Below the pieces are notes generated by a model, which worked only from the letters and a program-made list of their open reading frames with translations, searched no databases and had not been told where the DNA came from. From Gammaproteobacteria bacterium (lineage in GTDB: Bacteria; Pseudomonadota; Gammaproteobacteria; Eutrophobiales; Eutrophobiaceae): a stretch of DNA of 64,000 nucleotides. The number at the start of each line of letters is the position of its first letter. Position 1 is the stretch's first letter. Positions 32,688 to 43,517 of the stretch are shown here, piece by piece. The position numbers and the translations under genes are program-made. The stretch covers positions 768,001 to 832,000 of the forward strand of contig OZ244905.1 in the NCBI GenBank assembly GCA_965221695.1. Reading direction: 5' to 3'.

Positions 32688-33368
32688 TTGACGATGCGCG
32701 CCAAAACGCTGGTTGAAGCGTCTTATGACCGGATCCGTTCCGATATTATCGCGGGGAAACTGGCGCCGGGTTCCAAGCTGCGCATTGAGGAGTTGCGGGA
32801 AGACTATAACATCGGCGCAAGCCCGTTACGCGAGGCCCTGAACCGGCTGGCCGGCGAAGGCTTTGTCACCGCGGAAAGGCAGCGAGGGTTCAAGGTTGCG
32901 CCGGTTTCTACAGAGGACCTGAAAGACCTGAGTCGCATGCGGGTGATGCTGGAATGCCAGGCGTTGCGCGACAGTATCAGGAACGGCGATGATGAATGGG
33001 AGGTAAACCTGGTCGCATCCCACCACCGCCTGCAAAAGGCGGAACAGCATTACGGTAAGAACCTGGCGGAATGGGAACAACGCAACGATGAATTCCACGA
33101 AGCCCTGGTGGCGGCCTGCGGCTCAACATGGTTACTGCGCTTGCGCCACCTGCTCTACGAACAGCATAAGCGCTACCGTTTCATCGCGATACTGTCCCAA
33201 CAGGAAGGGCGGGATGTTCACCAGGAACATCGCGAGATACTGGAAGCGACTCTGGCGCGTGACATCAACGCGGCCTGCAAAGCCACGCAACAACATATAC
33301 AGCAGACGTTGGACACCAGCATCCGGGTATTCACTGAGCTGGAAAAAAACAGCCCCCTCTCCGTATAA
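32688..33368 (+). CDS. GntR/FCD family transcriptional regulator
   Basis: wHTH LAPGSKL...SPLREALNRL..EG.V....RGF.V; FCD FHEALV.ACGS, EH.EIL. Confidence 0.93.
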   Translation: MTMRAKTLVEASYDRIRSDIIAGKLAPGSKLRIEELREDYNIGASPLREALNRLAGEGFVTAERQRGFKVAPVSTEDLKDLSRMRVMLECQALRDSIRNGDDEWEVNLVASHHRLQKAEQHYGKNLAEWEQRNDEFHEALVAACGSTWLLRLRHLLYEQHKRYRFIAILSQQEGRDVHQEHREILEATLARDINAACKATQQHIQQTLDTSIRVFTELEKNSPLSV

Positions 33369-33388: not shown

Positions 33389-35683
33389 TTGAACAATACG
33401 TTTCTCCGTTCAATCCCGGCGGCCATCATAGCTGTGTTGACAACATTTGCCGGCCTGGCCCAGGAAACTGCGCCATTGCTGGAAGAGATCATCGTGACCG
33501 CCGAAAAACGCGCCGAAAGCCTGCAGGACTTGTCCCAGGCCGTGACCGCGCTGTCGGGCGAGGCACTGGACAACCGCAATATCACCAGCTTTGTGGACCT
33601 CAGCGGCATAGCCCCGGGCGTTACCGTCGCCAAGAACGAAGGGGTAAGAACCGTCATCTCCATACGCGGCGTGGGCAACGAGGCCAACCAGAACTCGATA
33701 GCCAACCCTTCCGTGTCCTACCACCTGGACGGAATCTACGTGGCATCGCCGTTTGCCCTGCGCACCGACTTCCTGGACCTGGAACGTATTGAAGTGTTGC
33801 GCGGCCCCCAGGGCACCCTGTTCGGCCAGAACTCCACGGGCGGTGCGATCAATGTGATTACGCAGGCGCCGGATACAGGGGAATTCTTCGGCAAGGCCGA
33901 TATCACAGTGGGGAACTACAGCCTGACGCGGGTGCGCGGTTCGGTCAACATCCCCATCAGCGATACCACGGCCTTGCGCGCCTCGGTCGCTACCCACAAC
34001 CATGACGGCTTCAGCAAGAACATCTTGCTGGACCAGGAACTGGATCAGGCCGACAACTTTTCCGGCCGCACCCGCCTGCTCTGGGCGCCGGCTGAAAACC
34101 TGCGCTTCAACTTCACTGCGCAGTATTTTGACGAAAACACCAACGGCGCGGCACAGAAAGGTATTTTCGACTCCACCCCGAACCCGCGCCGTCTGACCCA
34201 GGACCGGCACAGCAGTTACCAACTGGAGAGCCAGCTCTACAGTCTGGTCGCTGAATGGGAACTGCCCGCGTTCACGGTCAAGTCGCTGACCAGCTACCAG
34301 GACGATGAGGTCTCCGCGTCACGGGACAACGACCGTCATGATTTTTCCACGCTGATTAACCGCGGGACCTTCCTGTTGCCAGCCAGCGTTGATCCGGAGG
34401 CTGTCGGCCAGAAGACCATCACACAGGAGCTCAACCTTATCTCCTACGAACCGCTGTTCGGCCGACTCGATTGGGTGGTCGGGATGTTCTACCTGGATAC
34501 CGATGTGGACATCCTGTTTCGAGAATATATCGACTTTAATACCGACGGCGTTTATGGTCCCGACAAGGTCAGTGTGGAGGAGGTGCTGAACTTCGGGGGA
34601 GAAGTCGGCTTCATCTCTGATTCAAATCCGCAGCGGGAATCGATCTCCGTCTATGGCCAGGGCGCGTACAATCTTACCGACAGTCTGCGCCTGGTCGCCG
34701 GGCTGCGTTATACGGAAGATCAGGTTAACTCCAAGGTCACCAATTTCTTCGGCCGCGCCGGCACCGCTGTTCTTGAAACCCGGAGCGAGAAGCTTACCGG
34801 CCGCGGCGTGGTGGAAATCGATCTCAACATTAACGCGATGGCATATGCGTCATACACCCGCGGTTTCAAACCGGGCGGCAGCAACCTGACCTACGGCCGG
34901 GAGGATGTGGTGGCTCCCATCCTGGTGCTGCCCACCTACAAGGATGAGACGGTACAGGCCTGGGAAGTCGGCCTCAAGACCGACTTTGCCGGCAACCGGG
35001 TGCGGGTCAACGCCGCGGCGTTCTACTACGACTACGAAAACCTGCAATTCCAGGCGACCGACCCCGAAGTGTTCGAGGGTGGGGTCGGCAACCTGCCGGG
35101 ATCGGAAATCTACGGCGCCGAGATGGAACTGCTGGCGTTCGTCACAGACAGCCTGACCCTGGATGCGCGCCTGTCCTGGCTGGAAACGAAGATCTCCGAA
35201 TCACACCTGGCGCTGGACAACGTGCGCTCCGATGACGCCACCAACGCGCTCTTGCCCCAGTGCCAGTTCAACCTGTTCTGCGACGACATCCAGCGCGCCC
35301 GCGCCGCGGCGGTGACGGACGTAAAAGGCAACCAACTCGCCAAGACGCCCAATTTCACCGCGGACGTGATGCTGCGCTACCTGACTCGCCTGGGCAATTG
35401 GAGCGATTTCGAGACCAGCGTGCAATACCTCTACCGGGGCGGCTTCCAGCACCGCATCTTCAACAACCCGAAAACCGATGATGTGCCCAGCTACCATATC
35501 GTCAACCTGGTATTGACGATTGCGCCGGACGCGTACCCCTGGCACATCGACCTGATGGGAATGAACCTGACTGACGAAGATGGTATTAACGCCCGCTTCA
35601 CCGATGTCTTCGGCGTCGGCTCCACCAGCGACGAACTGATCCCACCCCGGCAATACATGGTACGCTTCGGCATGGAGTTCTGA
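33389..35683 (+). CDS. TonB-dependent receptor
   Basis: LEEIIVTAEKRAESLQD, ERIEVLRGPQGTLFGQN, C-terminal F. Confidence 0.95.
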   Translation: MNNTFLRSIPAAIIAVLTTFAGLAQETAPLLEEIIVTAEKRAESLQDLSQAVTALSGEALDNRNITSFVDLSGIAPGVTVAKNEGVRTVISIRGVGNEANQNSIANPSVSYHLDGIYVASPFALRTDFLDLERIEVLRGPQGTLFGQNSTGGAINVITQAPDTGEFFGKADITVGNYSLTRVRGSVNIPISDTTALRASVATHNHDGFSKNILLDQELDQADNFSGRTRLLWAPAENLRFNFTAQYFDENTNGAAQKGIFDSTPNPRRLTQDRHSSYQLESQLYSLVAEWELPAFTVKSLTSYQDDEVSASRDNDRHDFSTLINRGTFLLPASVDPEAVGQKTITQELNLISYEPLFGRLDWVVGMFYLDTDVDILFREYIDFNTDGVYGPDKVSVEEVLNFGGEVGFISDSNPQRESISVYGQGAYNLTDSLRLVAGLRYTEDQVNSKVTNFFGRAGTAVLETRSEKLTGRGVVEIDLNINAMAYASYTRGFKPGGSNLTYGREDVVAPILVLPTYKDETVQAWEVGLKTDFAGNRVRVNAAAFYYDYENLQFQATDPEVFEGGVGNLPGSEIYGAEMELLAFVTDSLTLDARLSWLETKISESHLALDNVRSDDATNALLPQCQFNLFCDDIQRARAAAVTDVKGNQLAKTPNFTADVMLRYLTRLGNWSDFETSVQYLYRGGFQHRIFNNPKTDDVPSYHIVNLVLTIAPDAYPWHIDLMGMNLTDEDGINARFTDVFGVGSTSDELIPPRQYMVRFGMEF

Positions 35684-35697
35684 CGGGAATGGTTCCG

Positions 35698-38004
35698 TCA
35701 TTTTCCATCTGCATCTCTCAACACCGTCGTTTCATAGCGAACTCCATCCGGTATCGGCACCGCCTGGTGCACGGTCACACCGTACTCCCCCTCGGTGGGT
35801 TTGGATGAATCCACGGCTACGAACGATGTGTAACTGGACACAAGCTGGTATTGCAGTGCAACCCGCCTGATGGCGTCACGCAACTCCCCATGGGGGTCTC
35901 CCACAGTCGACTGCCGATCCGATAGCTCGGCGATATTGGTACGCGCCCAGACCTTGGCGAGAGACGGACCGGCATTGCTTGCGCCAGTAGCATCCAGCGC
36001 AAAAGCACGGCGCGTGCCGTCAACCGTCCCGGATACGGTCACCGTTGTGGGTTCGTCCCGGAACTTTCCTGCAACAACCAGTGGTCGTCCTACAAACAGG
36101 TCGGGGAGGTGGCCGGGATAGGTATTGGATACGGCCATGTTACCCCAATCAATTTCAATGTCGGTGAGCGCCGCGCGGCTTACGCGCTTGAAAAATTCCT
36201 CCATCACCTGTTCCGCCGGATCATTCAGTCCCAAGTAGGCGACGGCGCCGCGCCCGACTTTAGCCATTCGTTCCATAAGATAGCGGTTGACGGATTCTCC
36301 AACACCAAAACTGAAAATGCGGGCATTGCTGATACGCTTGTACACCTCGGCCAAAATCTCTGCTTCATTACCGATATAACCATCCGTTAGAAACGAGACA
36401 AACCGGAACCGCGACGGGTTGTGAGGAAAATCCAGGGCTGCCCTGATCCCCTCGATCATCATCGTGCCGCCCTGGCTGTCCAGTTTCGCAAGATATCGAC
36501 GGGCAGCCGCCAGGTTTTTCTCCGTCGCGGCGACAGGCTCCCGGCCAAATTGGGAGGCATTATCCGAAAAACGGATGATCTGGAACGTATCGGTCGGGTG
36601 AAGCAGTCCCAATGCCGTATCGATAGCCTGTTTGGCCTGAGCCAGTGGACGGCCGCTCATCGAACCGGAACAGTCGATGACGAACACCATCTCCATCGGT
36701 CGGCGAGAAACCCGCAAAGTATCTATCGGTGGGATCATCATCAGTGAAAAGAACCCTTCTCCCGTCTCCGGGTCTTGGTAGGTCATCAGGCTGGATTTGA
36801 CGGCCTCTCCGGCGATGCGATAATCGAGCACGAAATCCCGATTGGGAAGAGTAGTCTGTTGCGCCAGTTGTACGGTCGCAGACGCAGACCCGTCCCGATT
36901 GACATTGATCTCATGGGTCGATTTCAGCTCTTCGATGTGCACGCCGGCGTCGATGCGCACGCTGATACCCAGGTCATGACCTGATCGCTCCGAAGGCGTA
37001 AGGTATTCAACACCTATTGCACCCGGCGTTGCCGTGCGGCCACCGCGCGGGAGCGCCACTACCGGGTCGTGGCTTTTGGGCGGGTTGAAGCGCGGACCGA
37101 CCACCGTGGGAAATACGAAAGAGTACCACCCATCCTTGTACGCGAGGGTGTGAAAGTAGGTGATGTCGACATCGATTGCCTTACCGGGCTCAATGTTGGC
37201 GACTTTCTGCTCGAATATGTTCGGACGATGCTGGACCAACAGACTTGCATGGTAGCCCTGCTCCCGCGCCGCGTGATAGATGGCCTCAGCTTCTTCCTTC
37301 TCCCGCAAGATGCCACGAATGGTGCGCTCCCCGATGACCATCAGGAATTCTGAGACCGCGGCTTTCTCCGGCAGTGGAAACACATAGACGGCCTCGATCT
37401 TTGTATCAAACGGGTTGGCAAACTGCTGTTTAACCCGAACTGTGCTGATGTGGCCGGCAATAGATGCGTCTACGTCCGTGTGTTGCAACGGCAGCGGCAC
37501 CTCTGCTGTTTCTCCGGCTTTATCTTGGGGTGGAACGTTCGCAATCAGACTTCCGGAACCGGGAACCTGTGTGCCTTCACCGACTGAAGGAGTGGAAGCC
37601 GCATAATCGGTAATTTCTTCAGAAGATGACGCCTTGGCGATGATCCAGATTTCCTCTGAAAAGGATTTTGACACCGCGCCCGGAGAAGCCAGGACGCCTT
37701 CCTGGGCTGGCACATCAAGTGGCAAGCCACTAACGTTACCCAGCCTTTCCCGAAAAACCTGGTAAGACTGCGTTTGTGACAGTGGCGCTGTGTCCAAGTG
37801 CGGGTAGACGGCTGGTTCCCCAGGTATCGGCAAGCCACCTGCTCCTTCCATTGTCTTCTCCGGAGGCGCGGACTGGGAAGTCTGCCCCTGAGGTGGTGGT
37901 GAAGCGGGCATCGGTGGTGGGCTGGAGCACGATGCCAGCAACTTGATGCCGATCATCATCAGCAAAATTATCATGCAGGATACAAATTGGAACTGTCTAT
38001 TCAT
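35698..38004 (-). CDS. VIT and vWA domain lipoprotein
   Basis: LLASC lipobox, Pro-rich linker, VIT (LPLQHTDV, QQFANP..IEAVYVFPLP), MIDAS DCSGS, FLTDG, LVSSYTSFVAVD. Confidence 0.92.
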   Translation of the reverse strand: MNRQFQFVSCMIILLMMIGIKLLASCSSPPPMPASPPPQGQTSQSAPPEKTMEGAGGLPIPGEPAVYPHLDTAPLSQTQSYQVFRERLGNVSGLPLDVPAQEGVLASPGAVSKSFSEEIWIIAKASSSEEITDYAASTPSVGEGTQVPGSGSLIANVPPQDKAGETAEVPLPLQHTDVDASIAGHISTVRVKQQFANPFDTKIEAVYVFPLPEKAAVSEFLMVIGERTIRGILREKEEAEAIYHAAREQGYHASLLVQHRPNIFEQKVANIEPGKAIDVDITYFHTLAYKDGWYSFVFPTVVGPRFNPPKSHDPVVALPRGGRTATPGAIGVEYLTPSERSGHDLGISVRIDAGVHIEELKSTHEINVNRDGSASATVQLAQQTTLPNRDFVLDYRIAGEAVKSSLMTYQDPETGEGFFSLMMIPPIDTLRVSRRPMEMVFVIDCSGSMSGRPLAQAKQAIDTALGLLHPTDTFQIIRFSDNASQFGREPVAATEKNLAAARRYLAKLDSQGGTMMIEGIRAALDFPHNPSRFRFVSFLTDGYIGNEAEILAEVYKRISNARIFSFGVGESVNRYLMERMAKVGRGAVAYLGLNDPAEQVMEEFFKRVSRAALTDIEIDWGNMAVSNTYPGHLPDLFVGRPLVVAGKFRDEPTTVTVSGTVDGTRRAFALDATGASNAGPSLAKVWARTNIAELSDRQSTVGDPHGELRDAIRRVALQYQLVSSYTSFVAVDSSKPTEGEYGVTVHQAVPIPDGVRYETTVLRDADGK

Positions 38005-38462
38005 TGCGACCTCTCCTGTAGGTAGTCGTCAGGTTCTGTTAAAGAAATCTTCGCATTGATTACACGCCCTTCTCGTGTGGTAGCCACAATCAGGCGCAAT
38101 TCGAAATCGGGTTCTCCTTCCAGCATCAGGTGTAGCCTGGCGAGACGAACGCGACCACTTGGCAATGTGCTTTCATCGGCCAGCGAGTAATCGGCAACGA
38201 CTATCCGGTCAGCATTACCACCGGCGACAGGTTCCCGGTCATAGTACGGCGCCCGCTGAAAAGCAGGGTGACCGCCGTTCTCGACACCCACCACTTTCAT
38301 CGCGCCGTTGCGGTCTTTGAGTTCGAACTGCCAGGCGGCCACGGTAGTCGGGCTGTCCAAGTAGATGTCCAGCGACGCAAAACGCGTGCTTGACCTGCTG
38401 TCCGCACAGACGAAACCCGTAAGCAAGATGAGAAAGGCTGCTACGAAGAGCCGACTGTTCAT
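38001..38462 (-). CDS. Secreted beta-rich protein, cohesin-like by pattern
   Basis: Signal peptide; SLDIYLDSPTTVAAWQFEL...MKVVGVENG and G..RLARLHL resemble cohesin strands; overlaps both neighbours by 4 bp. Confidence 0.6.
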   Translation of the reverse strand: MNSRLFVAAFLILLTGFVCADSRSSTRFASLDIYLDSPTTVAAWQFELKDRNGAMKVVGVENGGHPAFQRAPYYDREPVAGGNADRIVVADYSLADESTLPSGRVRLARLHLMLEGEPDFELRLIVATTREGRVINAKISLTEPDDYLQERSQ

Positions 38463-38854
38463 AGCATGCCGTCCCGGTCCAAAGCCACCAGGCGATAAGC
38501 GAAAGCATCCAGGTCAGCTTGGGTAACATCCTGGTCCGCGCGAGCCAGGGCCAGGACATCGGCAATATCGATCCGGCCGGAGCCGTCAAAATCTGCGTAA
38601 ATCGGAATGTCGTCTTGTTGAGTAAGCTGTATTGTCATAAACAGGGCAACCACGAGCACACAGGCCGCAGCTACGCGCCAGGCGCCCAGTGGTTGCCAAA
38701 GAGGGATACGGCGTGGTGCGAACTGGGCGTGCGTCATGCCGGCCAGCCTGCGGTCGACCCGGGAGGTGATAATATCGGGTGCCGCGTCGATGCGCTTCAG
38801 CTCATCGATCAGGGCTTCGGGCAGTTGCTCGTTTTGTTCGTTTACGCCAGTCAT
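38459..38854 (-). CDS. Putative single-TM anti-sigma factor with C-terminal dockerin-like Ca-binding motif
   Basis: Follows the ECF sigma gene; TM AAACVLVVALFMTI; ADFDGSGRIDIADVLALAR. Confidence 0.75.
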   Translation of the reverse strand: MTGVNEQNEQLPEALIDELKRIDAAPDIITSRVDRRLAGMTHAQFAPRRIPLWQPLGAWRVAAACVLVVALFMTIQLTQQDDIPIYADFDGSGRIDIADVLALARADQDVTQADLDAFAYRLVALDRDGML

Positions 38855-38876
38855 GTCATGAGTTCCCTGTCCATAT

Positions 38877-38902
38877 AACGCACTACATGGAAAAAAGGTT
38901 CA
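38877..38902 (-). promoter_or_regulatory. Candidate ECF promoter overlapping the sigma stop codon
   Basis: TGAACC-N16-CGTT on the minus strand, immediately upstream of the anti-sigma gene. Confidence 0.4.
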
Positions 38903-39484
38903 TTCGACTGAAAAATAATCCGCAAGCAGAGGAGAATCCCTGAGAATTGCGATGCCCCCGTGCAGTCGGGACTTCACGGTACCCACAGGGATGCCCAGGA
39001 CTTGTGCGATCTCATCCAGCGACATCCCGTCCACGAATCGAAGCATCAGGGTCTCCCGTTGGCCGAGCGGCAGATTCGCAAGCAACTTGCCGAGGTCTCT
39101 GTTGTCTCTATCCTGGGGGGCGGGCATATCTTCGGGCGTTATATCATCGGCAATCGGGAACCGTCCTGCCTTGCGCGTTGCTGAAATTGCCGCGTTTTTT
39201 GCTATGGGATAGAGCAGCGTCGTCAGCTTGGCTGTCAGTATTATCCCTTCACCGGCAGGCGGAAAACGACGTAGCAGTTGGACAAAGGTATCTTGGAGCA
39301 CATCCAGTGCGACATCGATATCAGGAGTAAAGCGTAGCGCTACGCGCAACACGTAATCCTTGTGGCGCAGATACAGGGCTTCAAACGCGGCCGCCGCTGC
39401 GACTGCATCACCATGGTTGCAAACGTCCACCAGCGTTTCGTCGTTACGAGGGTCTTGCCGATGGCTCCGGACCATGATGTGCAA
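38900..39484 (-). CDS. ECF RNA polymerase sigma factor
   Basis: AFEALY.RH, ALDVLQDTF, LP..QRE...LRFVDGMSLDEIA..LGIPVGTVKSRL. Confidence 0.95.
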   Translation of the reverse strand: MHIMVRSHRQDPRNDETLVDVCNHGDAVAAAAAFEALYLRHKDYVLRVALRFTPDIDVALDVLQDTFVQLLRRFPPAGEGIILTAKLTTLLYPIAKNAAISATRKAGRFPIADDITPEDMPAPQDRDNRDLGKLLANLPLGQRETLMLRFVDGMSLDEIAQVLGIPVGTVKSRLHGGIAILRDSPLLADYFSVE

Positions 39485-39639
39485 TCACTCAAGAGTTAGC
39501 GCCGGTTAGTCACCGGACGGTAAACCATCCTTATTTGTTGTCCGCCTGCAAAATCGGCAAACCATGCCCGCAGATGTTAGCATTTGATCTGGTTATTACT
39601 GTGCTAATTGAAAATCAAATTTACAATTAGCACATGTTT

Positions 39640-40089
39640 TTAGCTCTCCATTGTCATGGTTTCAGCGGCCCTGTCACCTACAACAAGGCTTCTTCCCACA
39701 GATCGTAAGGCCACTTCAACACTGCTGATATGCGAACGATGATCTGGGTCAACGAGCTTTCGGGCCGCAGCCTCGCTCAGACCAAGACGTTTTGCCAGCG
39801 CTGTCTTGCTAATACCCTGGCGGCGCATGGCCGTATACAGCGCCAATTTTGCAGCTACGACTGGTGAAACCGCAACAAGTTCCTGGCCATCCACCACGGC
39901 GCTCGGTACCGGAATGTCCCAATGCTGCCGAACATACCCTGCCAAAGCGGCTGTTAACGCATCTTCAGCCATTGCCAGCGCTTCGCTCCTGTCCTTACCG
40001 CCGGTAAGCGCCCCCGGCACATCCGGGAAGGTGACATAGAAACCCCCTCCCTCTTCCGGGGATAAAACACATGGATAAACGTAGTACAT
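39640..40089 (-). CDS. hicB: HicB antitoxin with C-terminal HTH
   Basis: YP......GGFYVTFPDVPGALT.G....EA..MAEDAL; C-terminal HTH. Confidence 0.92.
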   Translation of the reverse strand: MYYVYPCVLSPEEGGGFYVTFPDVPGALTGGKDRSEALAMAEDALTAALAGYVRQHWDIPVPSAVVDGQELVAVSPVVAAKLALYTAMRRQGISKTALAKRLGLSEAAARKLVDPDHRSHISSVEVALRSVGRSLVVGDRAAETMTMES

Positions 40090-40295
40090 CAGAATTCCTC
40101 TTTTTCGATATCAAGGTCTTTCAGCATCGCCGCAAGAAGCCCCTTACCGATTTCTTTTCGCGGTACAGTCGTAAACCGGTTGCCAAGATGAAGACGCCCG
40201 TGACTTCCCTTGCCACGTCTGGGGTCATAATGGCATCTCAACCCTTTCTTCCTAGCATAACGCTTGACGCGCCAAATGAATTCCGTTCCGTCCAT
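40089..40295 (-). CDS. hicA: HicA toxin
   Basis: 68 aa, basic, GKGSH motif, TTVP; coupled to hicB. Confidence 0.88.
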   Translation of the reverse strand: MDGTEFIWRVKRYARKKGLRCHYDPRRGKGSHGRLHLGNRFTTVPRKEIGKGLLAAMLKDLDIEKEEF

Positions 40296-40498
40296 GGTAA
40301 TATAATAGTGCTATATACTACGAAAATCGATAGAATTCGTACTTTTATATTCGCATAGTGGTGTCGGGTTCATCAAACTCAATTCCGTGAAATAAATTCT
40401 CATACTCACGTTTGTACTAAACATCAAATCGTGCTGTATATTATTCCCCTATCAAAGCGTCCGACAGACTGCAAGTGGTGAAATTGGAGTAAAACCTC

Positions 40499-42748
40499 GT
40501 GCCAACATTAGATCACAAGCTCGTAGAAATTGCACTTGAACATACAGGTGGGACTGAGTTTGAGAAGTTTTGCCAGACTTTTTTCACAAATGTGGTGGGT
40601 GTCGAATTAGTTCCCTTGGGTGGGATGCATGATGGTGGAGCTGATGCTTTCTTAGGTGAAGGCTTGCTCCAAGGCAGTCATACCAAGCCTGATGTTTTCT
40701 TTCAAGCAACAACTCAAGCAGACCACCGTTCTAAAATTCGAGCAGACCACCGTTCTAAAATTCGACACACCGTTGAAAGATTACGAAAAGTCGGACGACA
40801 GCCCAAACTTGTTAACTATTGTACATCTCGCATGATAGGCATGATTGACAAGGAAGAAGAGGCGCTTTCAAATGAACTAAATGTCGATGTTAGAATTAGA
40901 GATCGTAACTGGATTGTCAGCAATATAAATCACTCTCCACAGACAATTGCGGCTTTCAATAGCTATTTAGCGCCATCGCTAAGTTTCCTTGAGGATTTCA
41001 ATACATCCTTGAAAATAAAAGTATTGCCCGATATATCTGCACGTACTATGTGTGTATTTCTGGGGCAAGAAATAGACCGGCGGCGTGGCAATACAGATCT
41101 TCTTGAGGCGGTAACTGATAGCTTAATCTTATGGGCATTAGAAGATACTGACCCAGACACCAAAATTTTTATGAAGCGCCAAGATATTATAAATAAAATT
41201 GAAGGAACATTGCCTTCTGCAAAACAGTTCATCCGCGGCGTATTTGATAACCGAATAAGACTATTAGCATCCAAAACTAATACTACAGGTAGAGAGATCC
41301 GTTGGTATAAGAAAGAAGATAAATTTTGTCTCCCGTATGAAACTCGTAAAATCATAATAAATGAAAAAACTGAGGATGAATTCTTAAAAATTAAAGTCAT
41401 GGATCTATACAGAAAAAGAGCCAATGAGTGTCTTAATGAGGAAACAATTGCACTTTCTGATGAGGTTGCAAACATCGCACACAGGGCGCTCGAACTGACG
41501 TTTGAAAATGAGGGGCTATTACTGGCTGCTTTTCTGACGGGAGAAAATACTCAAAACCAATACGATGGCACGATCTCAGATCAAGTTGATGAAGCCATTA
41601 ATGAAACTAAACTGACCGGTGAAACCGCAACTAGTTACAAGGAGGTAGCACTGTCGATTCTTCGGCAAGCTTTTTACAAAAGTACAGAAGAAGAACGCAT
41701 ATATTATGGCAAACTTTCCCGCACCTATACTCTAATGTTCACATTACGCAATGAGCCGAGAATCGTTGAATATTTCAAAAGTATGTCATCAAATTTTGTT
41801 TTGTTCATTGGCTCCGACATCATCATCCGAGCGCTATCAGAGAGATATTTGGCACCTGAAGATCAGATGACTATCAATATGCTGTATATTCTTCAAGATG
41901 CAGGCTCCTCCCTTATCCTAACCCAAATGGCAGTCAGAGAAGTTCAAGCTCACTTGAGAGCCACAAATCAGGAATTCCAGAATTACTTCGTAAGCTTGGA
42001 GCACAATGTCGACAAAGAAATTGCTCGTCACTCCGATAAAATTTTGATCCGTTCTTATTTCTATGCAAAATTTAATCCATCACTAGATTCAAAGCCCAAT
42101 AGTTGGCGAGATTTCGCTGGACAGATTTGTAGCCACGAAAAACTTCATAAGACGGAAGAATCCAGGATTGAGGTGAAGAATTATTTAATTGAAAAATTCA
42201 ATTTCGAGTATTTAGATGACAATGATTTGGAAAAGATCACAAATGAGAACGAAATAAATAATCTTGCTGAAAAACTTACAGAAATCAAATCAGAGGAAGT
42301 ACTAGCCCTTAACGATGCAAAACATATTCTTGGAGTCTATGGAAAACGTCGTGACCTGCGAGAAAATCATATATCTAATCCTTATGGATATCGAACTTGG
42401 TGGCTTACGCATGAAACTAAGGTCCGAAGCGTCACTAAAGATATTGTTGATAATCAGGGGGCAGAATATATCATCCGTCCCGAATTTATCCTGAATTTCA
42501 TCGCGCTTTCACCAACAATGGCGCAAGTGCGCAAAAGTTATAATACCATTTTCCCCACTCTTTTAGGTATCAGGTTATCTAATAGAATGAGGAAAGATAT
42601 TTTCCAAAAAGTAATGGGAAAAGTACAGGAAGTAAGAAGAATTGATGATGCACGCGCCAAAGCCAAGCTTGCACAGATGTCAAACGATCTAAAAGGTGAC
42701 AATTTCAAGCAGTATGAAAATAATTTTGAACTCCTTTTTCAAGAATAA
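40499..42748 (+). CDS. AT-rich 749-aa protein: N-terminal restriction-endonuclease-like motif and C-terminal PIN-like region; candidate defence gene
   Basis: FEKFC...GGMHDGGADA...FFQAT; later VLFIGSDII, REVQAHL, NDA, WWLTHET. Confidence 0.6.
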   Translation: MPTLDHKLVEIALEHTGGTEFEKFCQTFFTNVVGVELVPLGGMHDGGADAFLGEGLLQGSHTKPDVFFQATTQADHRSKIRADHRSKIRHTVERLRKVGRQPKLVNYCTSRMIGMIDKEEEALSNELNVDVRIRDRNWIVSNINHSPQTIAAFNSYLAPSLSFLEDFNTSLKIKVLPDISARTMCVFLGQEIDRRRGNTDLLEAVTDSLILWALEDTDPDTKIFMKRQDIINKIEGTLPSAKQFIRGVFDNRIRLLASKTNTTGREIRWYKKEDKFCLPYETRKIIINEKTEDEFLKIKVMDLYRKRANECLNEETIALSDEVANIAHRALELTFENEGLLLAAFLTGENTQNQYDGTISDQVDEAINETKLTGETATSYKEVALSILRQAFYKSTEEERIYYGKLSRTYTLMFTLRNEPRIVEYFKSMSSNFVLFIGSDIIIRALSERYLAPEDQMTINMLYILQDAGSSLILTQMAVREVQAHLRATNQEFQNYFVSLEHNVDKEIARHSDKILIRSYFYAKFNPSLDSKPNSWRDFAGQICSHEKLHKTEESRIEVKNYLIEKFNFEYLDDNDLEKITNENEINNLAEKLTEIKSEEVLALNDAKHILGVYGKRRDLRENHISNPYGYRTWWLTHETKVRSVTKDIVDNQGAEYIIRPEFILNFIALSPTMAQVRKSYNTIFPTLLGIRLSNRMRKDIFQKVMGKVQEVRRIDDARAKAKLAQMSNDLKGDNFKQYENNFELLFQE

Positions 42749-42803
42749 TCCAGAGGGTGTACTGAGCGCATGCAAGTGTCGTCGTGATTAATGCTTAAAT
42801 CCA

Positions 42804-43190
42804 ATGCAAACATTGCAAACAAACTCAGATATTCCGGATGACACTGCAGCGGTCATCGAGGGTAAACACAGGACGGGTTTAACTGTTGTTCCTGACGGCT
42901 ACAGGGTAAAAAAGTTGGCTGAAGTGAAAAACTATCTAAACCACAATATGGATCTGTTGGGTTTTTTATCGTCGCTGCCCGCATCTATCTCTAAATCGAA
43001 AGGCGTGGAATCCATTGACCTGGAGTTCTATCATGATATTGAGGAACATTGGGATAAGCTGTTTGTAGTCGTCAACACTCAAATCGAAGATATGGATGAA
43101 CTCGATGCCCTGGAAGACTCATTATATTCTTCTTTGTTTGAACCCAAGGATGATATGCTATCAGGTCGAGTGGTGCTATCCGTAGGATGA
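42804..43190 (+). CDS. Acidic hypothetical protein, probable HEPN partner (degenerate MNT-like)
   Basis: EVKNYL, LEFYHDIE...KLFVVV; ends 3 bp before the HEPN-like ORF. Confidence 0.55.
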   Translation: MQTLQTNSDIPDDTAAVIEGKHRTGLTVVPDGYRVKKLAEVKNYLNHNMDLLGFLSSLPASISKSKGVESIDLEFYHDIEEHWDKLFVVVNTQIEDMDELDALEDSLYSSLFEPKDDMLSGRVVLSVG

Positions 43191-43193
43191 CCT

Positions 43194-43415
43194 ATGCCGA
43201 TTGAACCAAGGGACATGGTTGCGTACGCGCATGGGATGCTTAAAACAGCAGGATCAGAAATCGAGTATAGAAACGTTGTAAATCGCGCCTATTATGGGGC
43301 TTTTATCACCGCCAGAGACTTTGCAGAAATTACTACCGATAGCGGGAGCGTACATCGTGAAGTCGTTGAGCACTACCGCGTCGATGTAGTTACTCATGTG
43401 GCGGGTGGCGCGTAA
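43194..43415 (+). pseudogene. Truncated HEPN-domain gene
   Basis: YRNVVNRAYYGAF..AR and GSVH present; the C-terminal R-x4-6-H/Y segment is missing. Confidence 0.65.
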
Positions 43416-43517
43416 CAGCTTGTCTATCTCTTTATCGGTCCTGGCCTGTGAAATAGCAAGTTTATCCAAGGAAGCCGATATGTCCGCCAAGGACCGGAGA
43501 GTTTTTTCTTCATTCAT
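43375..43517 (-). pseudogene. N-terminal fragment of a coiled-coil (DUF3782-like) gene
   Basis: GGAG RBS; L..SQARTDKEIDKL pattern; runs head-on into the HEPN fragment. Confidence 0.45.

Follow-up and report, generated by a model that had tools for sequence, protein, structure and literature searches.

A conserved extracytoplasmic function sigma factor unit with a predicted cohesin–dockerin pair and a VIT–vWA lipoprotein in Gammaproteobacteria

Main

Sigma factors with extracytoplasmic function (ECF) rank among the commonest signalling devices of bacteria, and for most of their groups the input is unknown. In the closest described systems, a periplasmic component acts on an anti-sigma factor bound to the membrane: RseB and MucB bind the periplasmic part of their anti-sigma factors and control its fate, and CnrY is a very short single-pass anti-sigma factor, the small periplasmic end of which is read by a separate sensor, CnrX. 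Cohesin–dockerin pairs are known from elsewhere, as the extracellular glue of enzyme complexes. Here we analyse a stretch of 64,000 nucleotides from a gammaproteobacterial genome (positions 768,001 to 832,000 of contig OZ244905.1, assembly GCA_965221695.1; the whole stretch is hereafter called the window). Four genes located between positions 35698 and 39484 of the window encode an ECF sigma factor, a single-pass anti-sigma-like protein with a dockerin-like tail, a secreted protein with a predicted cohesin-type fold and a VIT–vWA lipoprotein. We rate this unit as a variant of ECF sigma/anti-sigma signalling, a setting in which a cohesin and a dockerin are both unexpected. On balance we lean, though not strongly, towards reading it as a self-contained envelope signalling module built on the ECF sigma factor, in which the cohesin-like partner sets the state of the dockerin-tailed anti-sigma factor.

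Organization and conservation of the unit

The unit is read from the minus strand. Its genes follow one another in the order sigma gene (38900–39484; 194 amino acids from a TTG start), anti-sigma-like gene (38459–38854; 131 amino acids), cohesin-fold gene (38001–38462; 153 amino acids) and VIT–vWA gene (35698–38004; 768 amino acids). A gap of 45 base pairs (bp) separates the sigma gene from the anti-sigma-like gene directly after it, and ATGA stop/start overlaps at 38459–38462 and 38001–38004 couple the last three genes. The list of open reading frames (ORFs) and these overlaps agree with a first-pass annotation of the window, which had described four co-oriented genes, the last three joined by 4-bp overlaps. 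The G+C content of the unit (~56%) matches that of the flanking chromosome.

The four-gene arrangement occurs far more often than chance would give, its order being kept both in genome loci and in a distant metagenomic clade. When species-representative genomes were scanned with a pattern, 56 loci were obtained, all of them in metagenome-assembled genomes (MAGs) of Gammaproteobacteria (Candidatus Azotimanducaceae, Pseudomonadales and Woeseiaceae). Counts of gene order here and below refer to loci with enough room on the relevant side or sides. The anti-sigma gene precedes the cohesin-like gene in 53/53 of these genome loci, the VIT–vWA gene follows it in 55/55, and a sigma gene lies no more than 1.5 kilobases upstream in 49/51; the complete ordered set of four is found in 48/50, the exceptions being L008 and L013. 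A second scan, which used an alignment of distant members 35–45% identical to the window protein, yielded 80 metagenomic loci with the same gene order. In this distant clade, all four genes are found in 29/36 loci under a strict distance rule, and the seven misses have sigma or anti-sigma matches farther upstream; the VIT–vWA gene follows in 53/54. The conserved gene order implied by the first-pass annotation is thus seen among close and distant relatives alike.

The family of the 153-residue protein is large. Among 476 candidates of similar length, 414 are relatives at E ≤ 0.001, and an exhaustive search gave 1054 cluster representatives at the same threshold, 650 of them at 1e-10 or better. 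The automatic taxon labels that the Atlas attaches to related clusters include at least Pseudomonadota, Planctomycetota and Verrucomicrobiota. An even sample within the phylum gave 0/400 other genomes with a match at E ≤ 1e-5, which indicates a patchy spread and is no proof of absence. The genome to which the window belongs (3.54 Mb, one contig) has a single copy of the cohesin-like gene.

A predicted cohesin-type fold

The 153-residue protein begins with a signal-like N terminus (putative signal peptide at about residues 1–20, 38403–38462). It has no lipobox, and its Cys19 is unconserved. No Pfam or NCBIfam model matches it at E ≤ 1. An AlphaFold2 (AF2) model built from a 74-sequence alignment is all-β, with a mean predicted local distance difference test (pLDDT) score of 89.6, 118 residues at 90 or above and a predicted template modelling (pTM) score of 0.79; its β-sandwich spans about residues 25–143 (38034–38390).

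Comparison of this model with the PDB by Foldseek returned 14 matches at E ≤ 0.001. The best 15 listed rows (ranks 1–17) are all cohesin modules or cohesin-bearing pieces of scaffoldins, with E values from 1.6e-4 and template modelling (TM) scores of 0.47–0.59, and the first other fold, a pilin, comes at rank 18. VIA-align, which is independent of Foldseek, was run against 48,161 representative chains: ranks 1–19 are all cohesins (Z 9.4–6.4, 103–122 residues aligned, root mean square deviation 2.8–4.1), and the first non-cohesin fold has a Z of 6.2. In the Atlas, where the homologue P0174 stood in for the window protein, the neighbours outside its own family are Cohesin clusters, with TM scores of 0.57–0.62.

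We find the cohesin call persuasive because the top of both aligner lists is uniformly cohesin. The protein is, in a confident model, predicted to be a cohesin-type β-sandwich (the cohesins of PF00963 span ~140 residues), and it belongs to a family that lies beyond the reach of sequence models. The first-pass annotation had made the call by eye; it now has the backing of the AF2 model, for which cohesins are the best matches of both Foldseek and VIA-align, and no sequence model recognises the protein.

The structural matches are all assembly modules, and to our knowledge cohesin–dockerin pairs are assembly devices in every characterised case. Both points suit an account in which the contact described below serves anchoring and not signalling: it would moor the cohesin-like protein, and perhaps the VIT–vWA protein with it, to the inner membrane, the membrane protein would be a scaffold, and the sigma factor would merely drive an adhesin-like complex. 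We consider this unlikely. The sigma linkage holds across both clades, whereas a plain anchor needs no constant sigma neighbour, and the gene next after that of the ECF sigma factor is the one whose product bears the dockerin, a protein with a conserved two-helix cytoplasmic part.

An anti-sigma-like protein with a dockerin-like tail

The protein encoded between the sigma and cohesin-like genes probably has ~55 cytoplasmic residues, one transmembrane helix and a periplasmic tail of ~50 residues. Columns conserved in 41 relatives delimit a cytoplasmic two-helix part at residues 11–46 (38717–38824). The transmembrane helix is a hydrophobic stretch at residues 59–75 (38630–38680), modelled by AF2 as a helix at 58–78, and the dockerin-like periplasmic tail at residues 86–128 (38471–38599) comprises one Ca loop and two helices. 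The loop, DFDGSGRIDIAD (residues 88–99, 38558–38593), is 12 residues long, has Asp or Ser at positions 1, 3, 5, 9 and 12 and leads into the helix at 97–105. The remaining helices of the AF2 model, which has a pLDDT of 68, are at 13–23, 31–45 and 112–128.

We infer that this single-pass protein is an anti-sigma factor from the place of its gene, its putative topology, the conservation of its cytoplasmic helices and two weak family matches (NF052375, E 0.028; CU044_5270, E 3.3e-4), both far under their cut-offs. The features of a membrane anti-sigma factor are seen together: a gene beside that of the sigma factor, a single transmembrane helix and a putatively cytoplasmic N terminus, in an arrangement shared by 53/53 genome loci.

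The dockerin identity of the tail is clearest in the orthologues. At the same gene position in the distant clade stands a protein that matches the anti-sigma profile and whose tail has two DxNxDGxVDxxD-type loops, each followed by a helix, in 62/67 ORFs; the other five have one loop. All 15 of the distant-clade tails tested pass Pfam Dockerin_1, with 29.6–45.9 bits against a cut-off of 22.9 (E 7.8e-7 to 6.7e-12) and over nearly the whole model. One loop is kept in 51/53 close-clade tails. Among the 41 tails of this clade that were compared with Pfam, Dockerin_1 is the commonest match (24/41), always below threshold, with a best E of 0.0014. A type I dockerin (PF00404) is defined by two tandem loop–helix segments of ~22 residues each, with Ca loops of 12 residues; the second segment of the window tail is a helix without the loop pattern, and this helix (112–128) aligns by eye with that of the lost second repeat. 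Searches against PDB sequences gave, for the anti-sigma family profile, the dockerins 2ccl_B (E 0.013) and 1ohz_B (E 0.097) behind spurious ribosomal matches and, for the window protein by phmmer, a calcium-dependent kinase (E 0.056) and the dockerin 2ccl_B (E 0.2).

Because the distant-clade orthologues carry two canonical repeats and pass Dockerin_1, we read the window tail as a degenerate dockerin; homology shows it to be one that would have lost its second Ca loop and come to lie below the family threshold. The dockerin-type loop and degenerate second helix noted in the first-pass annotation hold good by way of these orthologues, the window copy itself being sub-threshold. A scan of the window's own genome found no Dockerin_1 match at E ≤ 0.1. 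Since that genome also holds one cohesin-like gene and one VIT gene, the tail is the only dockerin-like candidate partner found in it.

Residues D88, D90, S92, G93, D96 and D99 of the loop are invariant or almost so among the 41 relatives, and dockerins need calcium to fold. The loop might accordingly be seen as a calcium switch, with binding to the tail depending on calcium occupancy and the module reporting periplasmic calcium. We give this account little credence. The family occurs in marine, sponge-associated and soil samples, in which calcium differs widely; the second loop has already been lost in the lineage of the window; and 2/53 close-clade tails are without the loop pattern and keep the module. 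Because of these last two points, calcium is more likely to be structural than to be the signal, and the second of them would suit either a structural ion or no ion at all.

Predicted complex of the cohesin-like protein and the tail

We modelled the complex from residues 22–153 of the cohesin-like protein, residues 76–131 of the anti-sigma-like protein and one calcium ion, with an alignment for each protein. The complex score was 0.89 in all three runs, and the best of three controls reached 0.02; the score mark is one that 116/157 solved complexes and 2/215 mismatched pairs pass. At least 95% of contacts are shared between runs, and the partner has a pLDDT of at least 74. Contacts on the cohesin-like protein involve residues 42–45, 73–75, 78, 84, 86–92, 94, 125–126, 128, 132 and 134. 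Those on the tail involve residues 90, 92, 94, 96–98, 100–102, 104–105, 116, 119–120 and 122–125, which places loop positions 9–11 and both helices in the modelled interface. The most conserved surface of the cohesin-like protein, formed by AAWQ (42–45), YYD (73–75) and RIVVADY (86–92), lies at this predicted interface. Type I cohesins bind dockerin on the sheet face 8–3–6–5, and the parts of the tail contacted here are presumably the same dockerin elements that are used in solved complexes.

The loci supplied 63 distinct partner pairs, on which we measured conservation of the interface. Mean column entropy is 0.89 at the contacts of the tail and 2.04 in the rest of it, a difference for which 0/20,000 permutations gave a value as low. 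On the cohesin-like protein, it is 0.74 at the contacts and 1.58 elsewhere (p 1e-4); with the folded core alone considered, the values are 0.74 and 1.41 (p 6e-4). Because buried residues are also conserved, we regard this as supportive and not decisive. The complex model supports binding of the anti-sigma tail by the cohesin-like protein, and the confident interface with the anti-sigma C terminus that the first-pass annotation had anticipated appears in it, at 0.89 against the 0.02 of the best control.

A further account of the locus has no need of this contact. The gene of the cohesin-like protein is translationally coupled to that of the VIT–vWA protein and always stands just before it, and the protein could be a generic β-sandwich helper of VIT–vWA (for example a folding or export partner) that does not touch the anti-sigma factor. 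The interface would then be a false pass, of the kind seen in the two of 215 mismatched pairs that reached the mark, and the missing sequence-level cohesin signal would be as expected. We regard this as improbable: the complex score stands at 0.89 against controls of at most 0.02, the residues predicted to be in contact are the most conserved ones on either protein, and the dockerin encoded by the partner gene passes the family threshold in the distant clade. The protein P0244, which combines a dockerin-like stretch and a cohesin-like domain, also speaks against a mere helper, but it may be a gene-calling artefact.

Three longer proteins of the family deserve description. A single frame of P0244 encodes a transmembrane stretch, the dockerin-like stretch (a match to Dockerin_1 at E 0.0027) and the cohesin-like domain, and alone among 21 longer library proteins P0244 showed an anti-sigma-like stretch in a profile search. 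P0245 has an HxxxCxxC motif and, by eye, a hydrophobic or transmembrane stretch before its cohesin-like domain, and no Pfam match. P0270, the sole match in a search of longer proteins for fusions, joins a cohesin-like protein to the last third of a VIT–vWA protein, as a deletion or a join made in assembly would do. All three may be real fusions, or else frameshift, gene-calling or assembly artefacts.

Some of the contact positions vary: 94, 120, 122 and 124 on the tail and 125, 126, 128 and 134 on the partner. Two or three copies of the whole module are present in some genomes (L008 and L010 on one chromosome; L009 and L011 in one MAG; L005, L017 and L021 in another). In such multi-copy genomes, the variable contact positions could give each pair its own specificity.

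The VIT–vWA lipoprotein

The product of the last gene matches the Pfam families VIT (E 1e-34; residues 173–283, 37156–37488) and VWA_3 (E 2e-17; residues 438–587, 36244–36693). An alignment of N termini places a lipobox, L-A-S-C26, at 37927–37938 and shows a variable low-complexity tether that extends to about residue 130. The motif DCSGS of the metal-ion-dependent adhesion site (MIDAS) is found at residues 444–448 (36661–36675). The protein also has GGT at 512, TDG at 540 and a conserved strand, E-E-I-W-I-I-A-K. Following the DxSxS...T...D pattern, we take T514 and D541 to be the remaining MIDAS residues. With this assumption, the Pfam matches, the lipobox and DCSGS accord with the earlier description of the protein as a VIT–vWA lipoprotein with an intact MIDAS.

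The best NCBIfam match is to TIGR03788 (marine proteobacterial sortase target; E 2.7e-143), in which residues 176–756 cover positions 3–593 of the 629 in the hidden Markov model (HMM). Members of that family end in a sortase sorting signal and are encoded beside a sortase. Membership of the window protein was rejected. Its score of 478.7 bits is under the cut-off of 551.65, and the last 36 HMM positions (594–629) are unmatched, the protein ending in ...RDADGK without a hydrophobic tail. It has an N-terminal lipobox, and no sortase gene adjoins its own, the next gene being that of a convergent TonB-dependent receptor. On its sequence, we class the protein as a lipoprotein relative of the TIGR03788 family and not as a member.

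Two features of this part of the unit lend themselves to the anchoring account. A VIT–vWA protein with an intact MIDAS resembles adhesive proteins, and the presence in some lineages of a fifth gene, for another lipoprotein, suggests a structural complex.

The fifth gene follows the VIT–vWA gene, in the same orientation, in Woeseiaceae loci and also in several loci from soil. Its product is a lipoprotein of ~250–290 amino acids that has a Cys in its signal end and matches no Pfam family; examples are found at L027:8697–9491, L033:3946–4746, L054:8632–9486, L065:7191–7997 and L075:7577–8446, among others. The fifth genes form two clusters, of five and six loci, and none is present in the window.

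The ECF sigma factor and its upstream region

The sigma protein matches the Pfam families Sigma70_r2 (E 1.2e-8; residues 37–108, ~39161–39376), Sigma70_r4_2 (E 5.3e-15; residues 130–175, ~38960–39097) and Sigma70_ECF, and its score against the NCBIfam model TIGR02937 (sigma70-ECF) is 77.4 bits, above the cut-off of 42.9. Regions 2 and 4 stand alone in this protein of 194 amino acids, which is the architecture of ECF (group 4) sigma factors, whose usual length is ~200 amino acids. The Pfam matches and TIGR02937 thus confirm the ECF identity proposed from the outset. No NCBIfam equivalog model matches the protein at its cut-off, and for this reason we assign it to no named ECF group. As the likely start codon we prefer the ATG at 39475 to the TTG at 39484, since the ATG lines up with the start codons of relatives.

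Upstream of the sigma gene, 27/36 distinct loci of the distant clade have a bipartite motif of ECF type, GAAC[CT]TT-N-CnCT[TA]AA, at fixed spacing (shuffle rate 1.4e-4). This would fit autoregulation of the operon in that clade, and it counts against the anchoring account. Close-clade upstream regions gave no clear −35/−10 pair, either by counts of word pairs or by alignment; the sole block common to them is CGCTAAC...TCTTGAG, the downstream box being the only one that can be aligned.

In the distant-clade loci L063–L137, the bipartite motif is conserved, and ACTTGAAG and a short hairpin come after it.

Flanking genes

Directly upstream of the sigma gene, at 39640–40295 on the minus strand, lie genes for a HicA toxin (68 amino acids; HicA_toxin, E 6e-7) and a HicB-like antitoxin (149 amino acids; E 3.7e-8), and a 10-bp inverted repeat, imperfectly placed, is found at ~39600–39633 after the hicB stop. 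A stretch of low G+C content at ~40000–43500 (38–44%, against ~56–60% around it) is unrelated to the unit and may be an acquired island. It contains ORFs of 749 amino acids (40499–42748) and 128 amino acids (42804–43190), neither of which has a Pfam family at E ≤ 0.001.

On the other side of the unit, the convergent gene for the TonB-dependent receptor (plug and barrel) is located at 33389–35683 on the plus strand and is preceded by a gene for a GntR/FCD regulator (32688–33368, plus strand). The receptor was considered as a member of the unit and rejected: it is kept in the closest relative, L001, and not in the other loci, and we leave it out because downstream neighbours vary among loci.

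Proposed mechanism

In the signalling reading that we favour, the short single-pass anti-sigma factor would hold the sigma factor at the inner membrane, as its position and architecture suggest, and the secreted cohesin-like protein would bind the periplasmic dockerin tail through its most conserved surface. The state of the anti-sigma factor would be set by the cohesin-like protein, its partner in the periplasm. Two versions can be envisaged. In one, the cohesin-like protein would shield the tail from proteolysis until it is displaced, in the manner of RseB with RseA; in the other, it would relay a change from a sensor, in the manner of CnrX with CnrY. The VIT–vWA protein, an outer-membrane lipoprotein on a long flexible tether with its MIDAS intact, would most likely serve as the ligand-binding component, by which the cohesin-like protein is engaged or released.

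A broader proposal is that a widespread trans-envelope signalling pathway has taken over cohesin–dockerin recognition as its receiving interface, which would make it a new class of ECF input: the VIT–vWA protein would sense a ligand, the free cohesin would carry this state to the dockerin, and the ECF sigma factor would be released. We advance it tentatively, as a possibility against which we would sooner wager than for it.

Several observations weigh against the signalling reading. For the fold, VIA Z values of 8–9.4 are middling by the tool's own scale, and a shared fold shows no function. The Cohesin family PF00963 matches 2/74 family members at E ≤ 1, with a best E of 0.038, and neither the 153-residue sequence nor the family profile found a cohesin, or any other meaningful match, among PDB sequences. 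For the tail, Pfam gives no Dockerin_1 match to the window copy at E ≤ 1, and the copy matches EF-hand_7 (E 0.015) and, equally weakly, EF-hand_1. These two families are each found in 23/41 close-clade tails, nearly as often as Dockerin_1, and the module persists with the two tails of 53 that have no Ca-loop pattern. For the anti-sigma model, Foldseek ranks a dockerin first, 2vn5_B, at an E of 4.7, which is not significant. The pass of the complex may stem from the model's memory of solved cohesin–dockerin complexes, and the use of our own alignments and of a calcium ion lies outside the calibration of the complex tool. Finally, the bipartite motif of the distant clade is present in 0/50 close-clade upstream regions, that of the window included.

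The first-pass annotation had interpreted the locus as a periplasmic cohesin that binds the dockerin of the anti-sigma factor as a Ca-dependent switch, with the VIT–vWA protein as sensor or output. Of this interpretation, the cohesin fold, the predicted interface, the conserved gene order and the dockerin identity have stood, and the mechanism stays at the level of inference, the role given to the VIT–vWA protein being drawn from its constant linkage.

The unit offers a concrete candidate for the input interface of an ECF sigma factor, consisting of a small dockerin on the anti-sigma factor and a single-domain partner of cohesin fold, with predicted contact residues. If the signalling reading is true, cohesin–dockerin biology would extend beyond the assembly of extracellular enzymes in Gram-positive anaerobes and take in signalling in the periplasm of Gram-negative bacteria, and bacterial VIT–vWA lipoproteins would acquire a first functional context. 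A large family outside the coverage of Pfam and NCBIfam (1054 cluster representatives) would also be defined, and orthogonal cohesin–dockerin pairs wired to orthogonal ECF sigma factors would be of interest for synthetic biology.

Comparison with known systems

The pair resembles cellulosomal type I pairs (PDB 1ohz, 2ccl and 6kgc) in the cohesin-type sandwich and in the orthologue tails, which are two-repeat dockerins above the Pfam threshold. It differs from them in setting and in composition. Here the predicted pair is periplasmic and Gram-negative, and the dockerin ends an anti-sigma-like membrane protein, not an enzyme; the cohesin is a free single domain and not part of a scaffoldin, and the unit has no carbohydrate-active genes. 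In addition, the cohesin has no detectable sequence similarity to its family, and the dockerin of the window is without a second Ca loop. Non-cellulosomal cohesins show that the pair also has uses apart from cellulosomes, and the cohesin of Archaeoglobus fulgidus (2xdh) and the glycoside-hydrolase cohesin modules of Clostridium perfringens (2jh2, 2vo8, 2w1n and 2o4e) are among the best structural matches. However, none of them is linked to a sigma/anti-sigma pair, and their roles lie in the assembly of enzyme or toxin complexes, or are unknown. A survey entitled 'Noncellulosomal cohesin- and dockerin-like modules in the three domains of life' reportedly exists.

In the open-access papers and preprints searched, we found no published description of a unit of dockerin-tailed anti-sigma factor and cohesin-fold protein, and nothing relevant on cohesin-like proteins with ECF sigma factors or on ECF sigma factors with inter-alpha-trypsin. 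Among the matches listed, literature that joins an anti-sigma factor and a dockerin concerns, in the portions of text available, cellulosomes, polysaccharide-degrading systems or sigma-I/RsgI regulation. A radiation-induced VIT–vWA protein is cytoplasmic and belongs to a different context, according to the accessible part of its preprint (bioRxiv 10.64898/2026.05.23.727404), and the corresponding part of PMC3174227 merely lists paralogue families.

ECF groups with von Willebrand domains have been described. In its main text and part of its supplement, PMC7826278 gives such domains for ECF28, ECF226, ECF255 and ECF289. The same portions of PMC7826278 describe vWA fused to DUF3520 on the anti-sigma factor itself in ECF226 and ECF289, and a vWA–DUF3520 protein that is a soluble or secreted neighbour, encoded at −1, in ECF255. 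As far as these portions go, ECF226, ECF255 and ECF289 are like the present unit in linking an ECF sigma factor to a vWA protein of unknown role. They hold no VIT entry and name no cohesin-like protein or dockerin for the three groups, and they mention Dockerin_1 for ECF217s1 only, beside protein kinases (PMC7826278). CnrH–CnrY–CnrX of Cupriavidus metallidurans is assigned to group ECF291 in the consulted part of PMC7826278.

In function, the unit is most readily compared with systems in which a separate periplasmic protein reads a single-pass anti-sigma factor. CnrX is a helical, membrane-anchored metal sensor, whereas the partner here is a predicted β-sandwich and is joined by a further component, the VIT–vWA lipoprotein. 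RseB and MucB likewise share no homology with the cohesin-like protein, which has a cohesin sandwich and no MucB_RseB match at E ≤ 1 for its 153 residues, and the cytoplasmic part of the anti-sigma factor is much shorter here. What the unit has in common with RpoE–RseA–RseB and AlgU–MucA–MucB is the set of parts, namely an ECF sigma factor, a single-pass anti-sigma factor and a soluble periplasmic partner, and it is this functional analogy that we favour.

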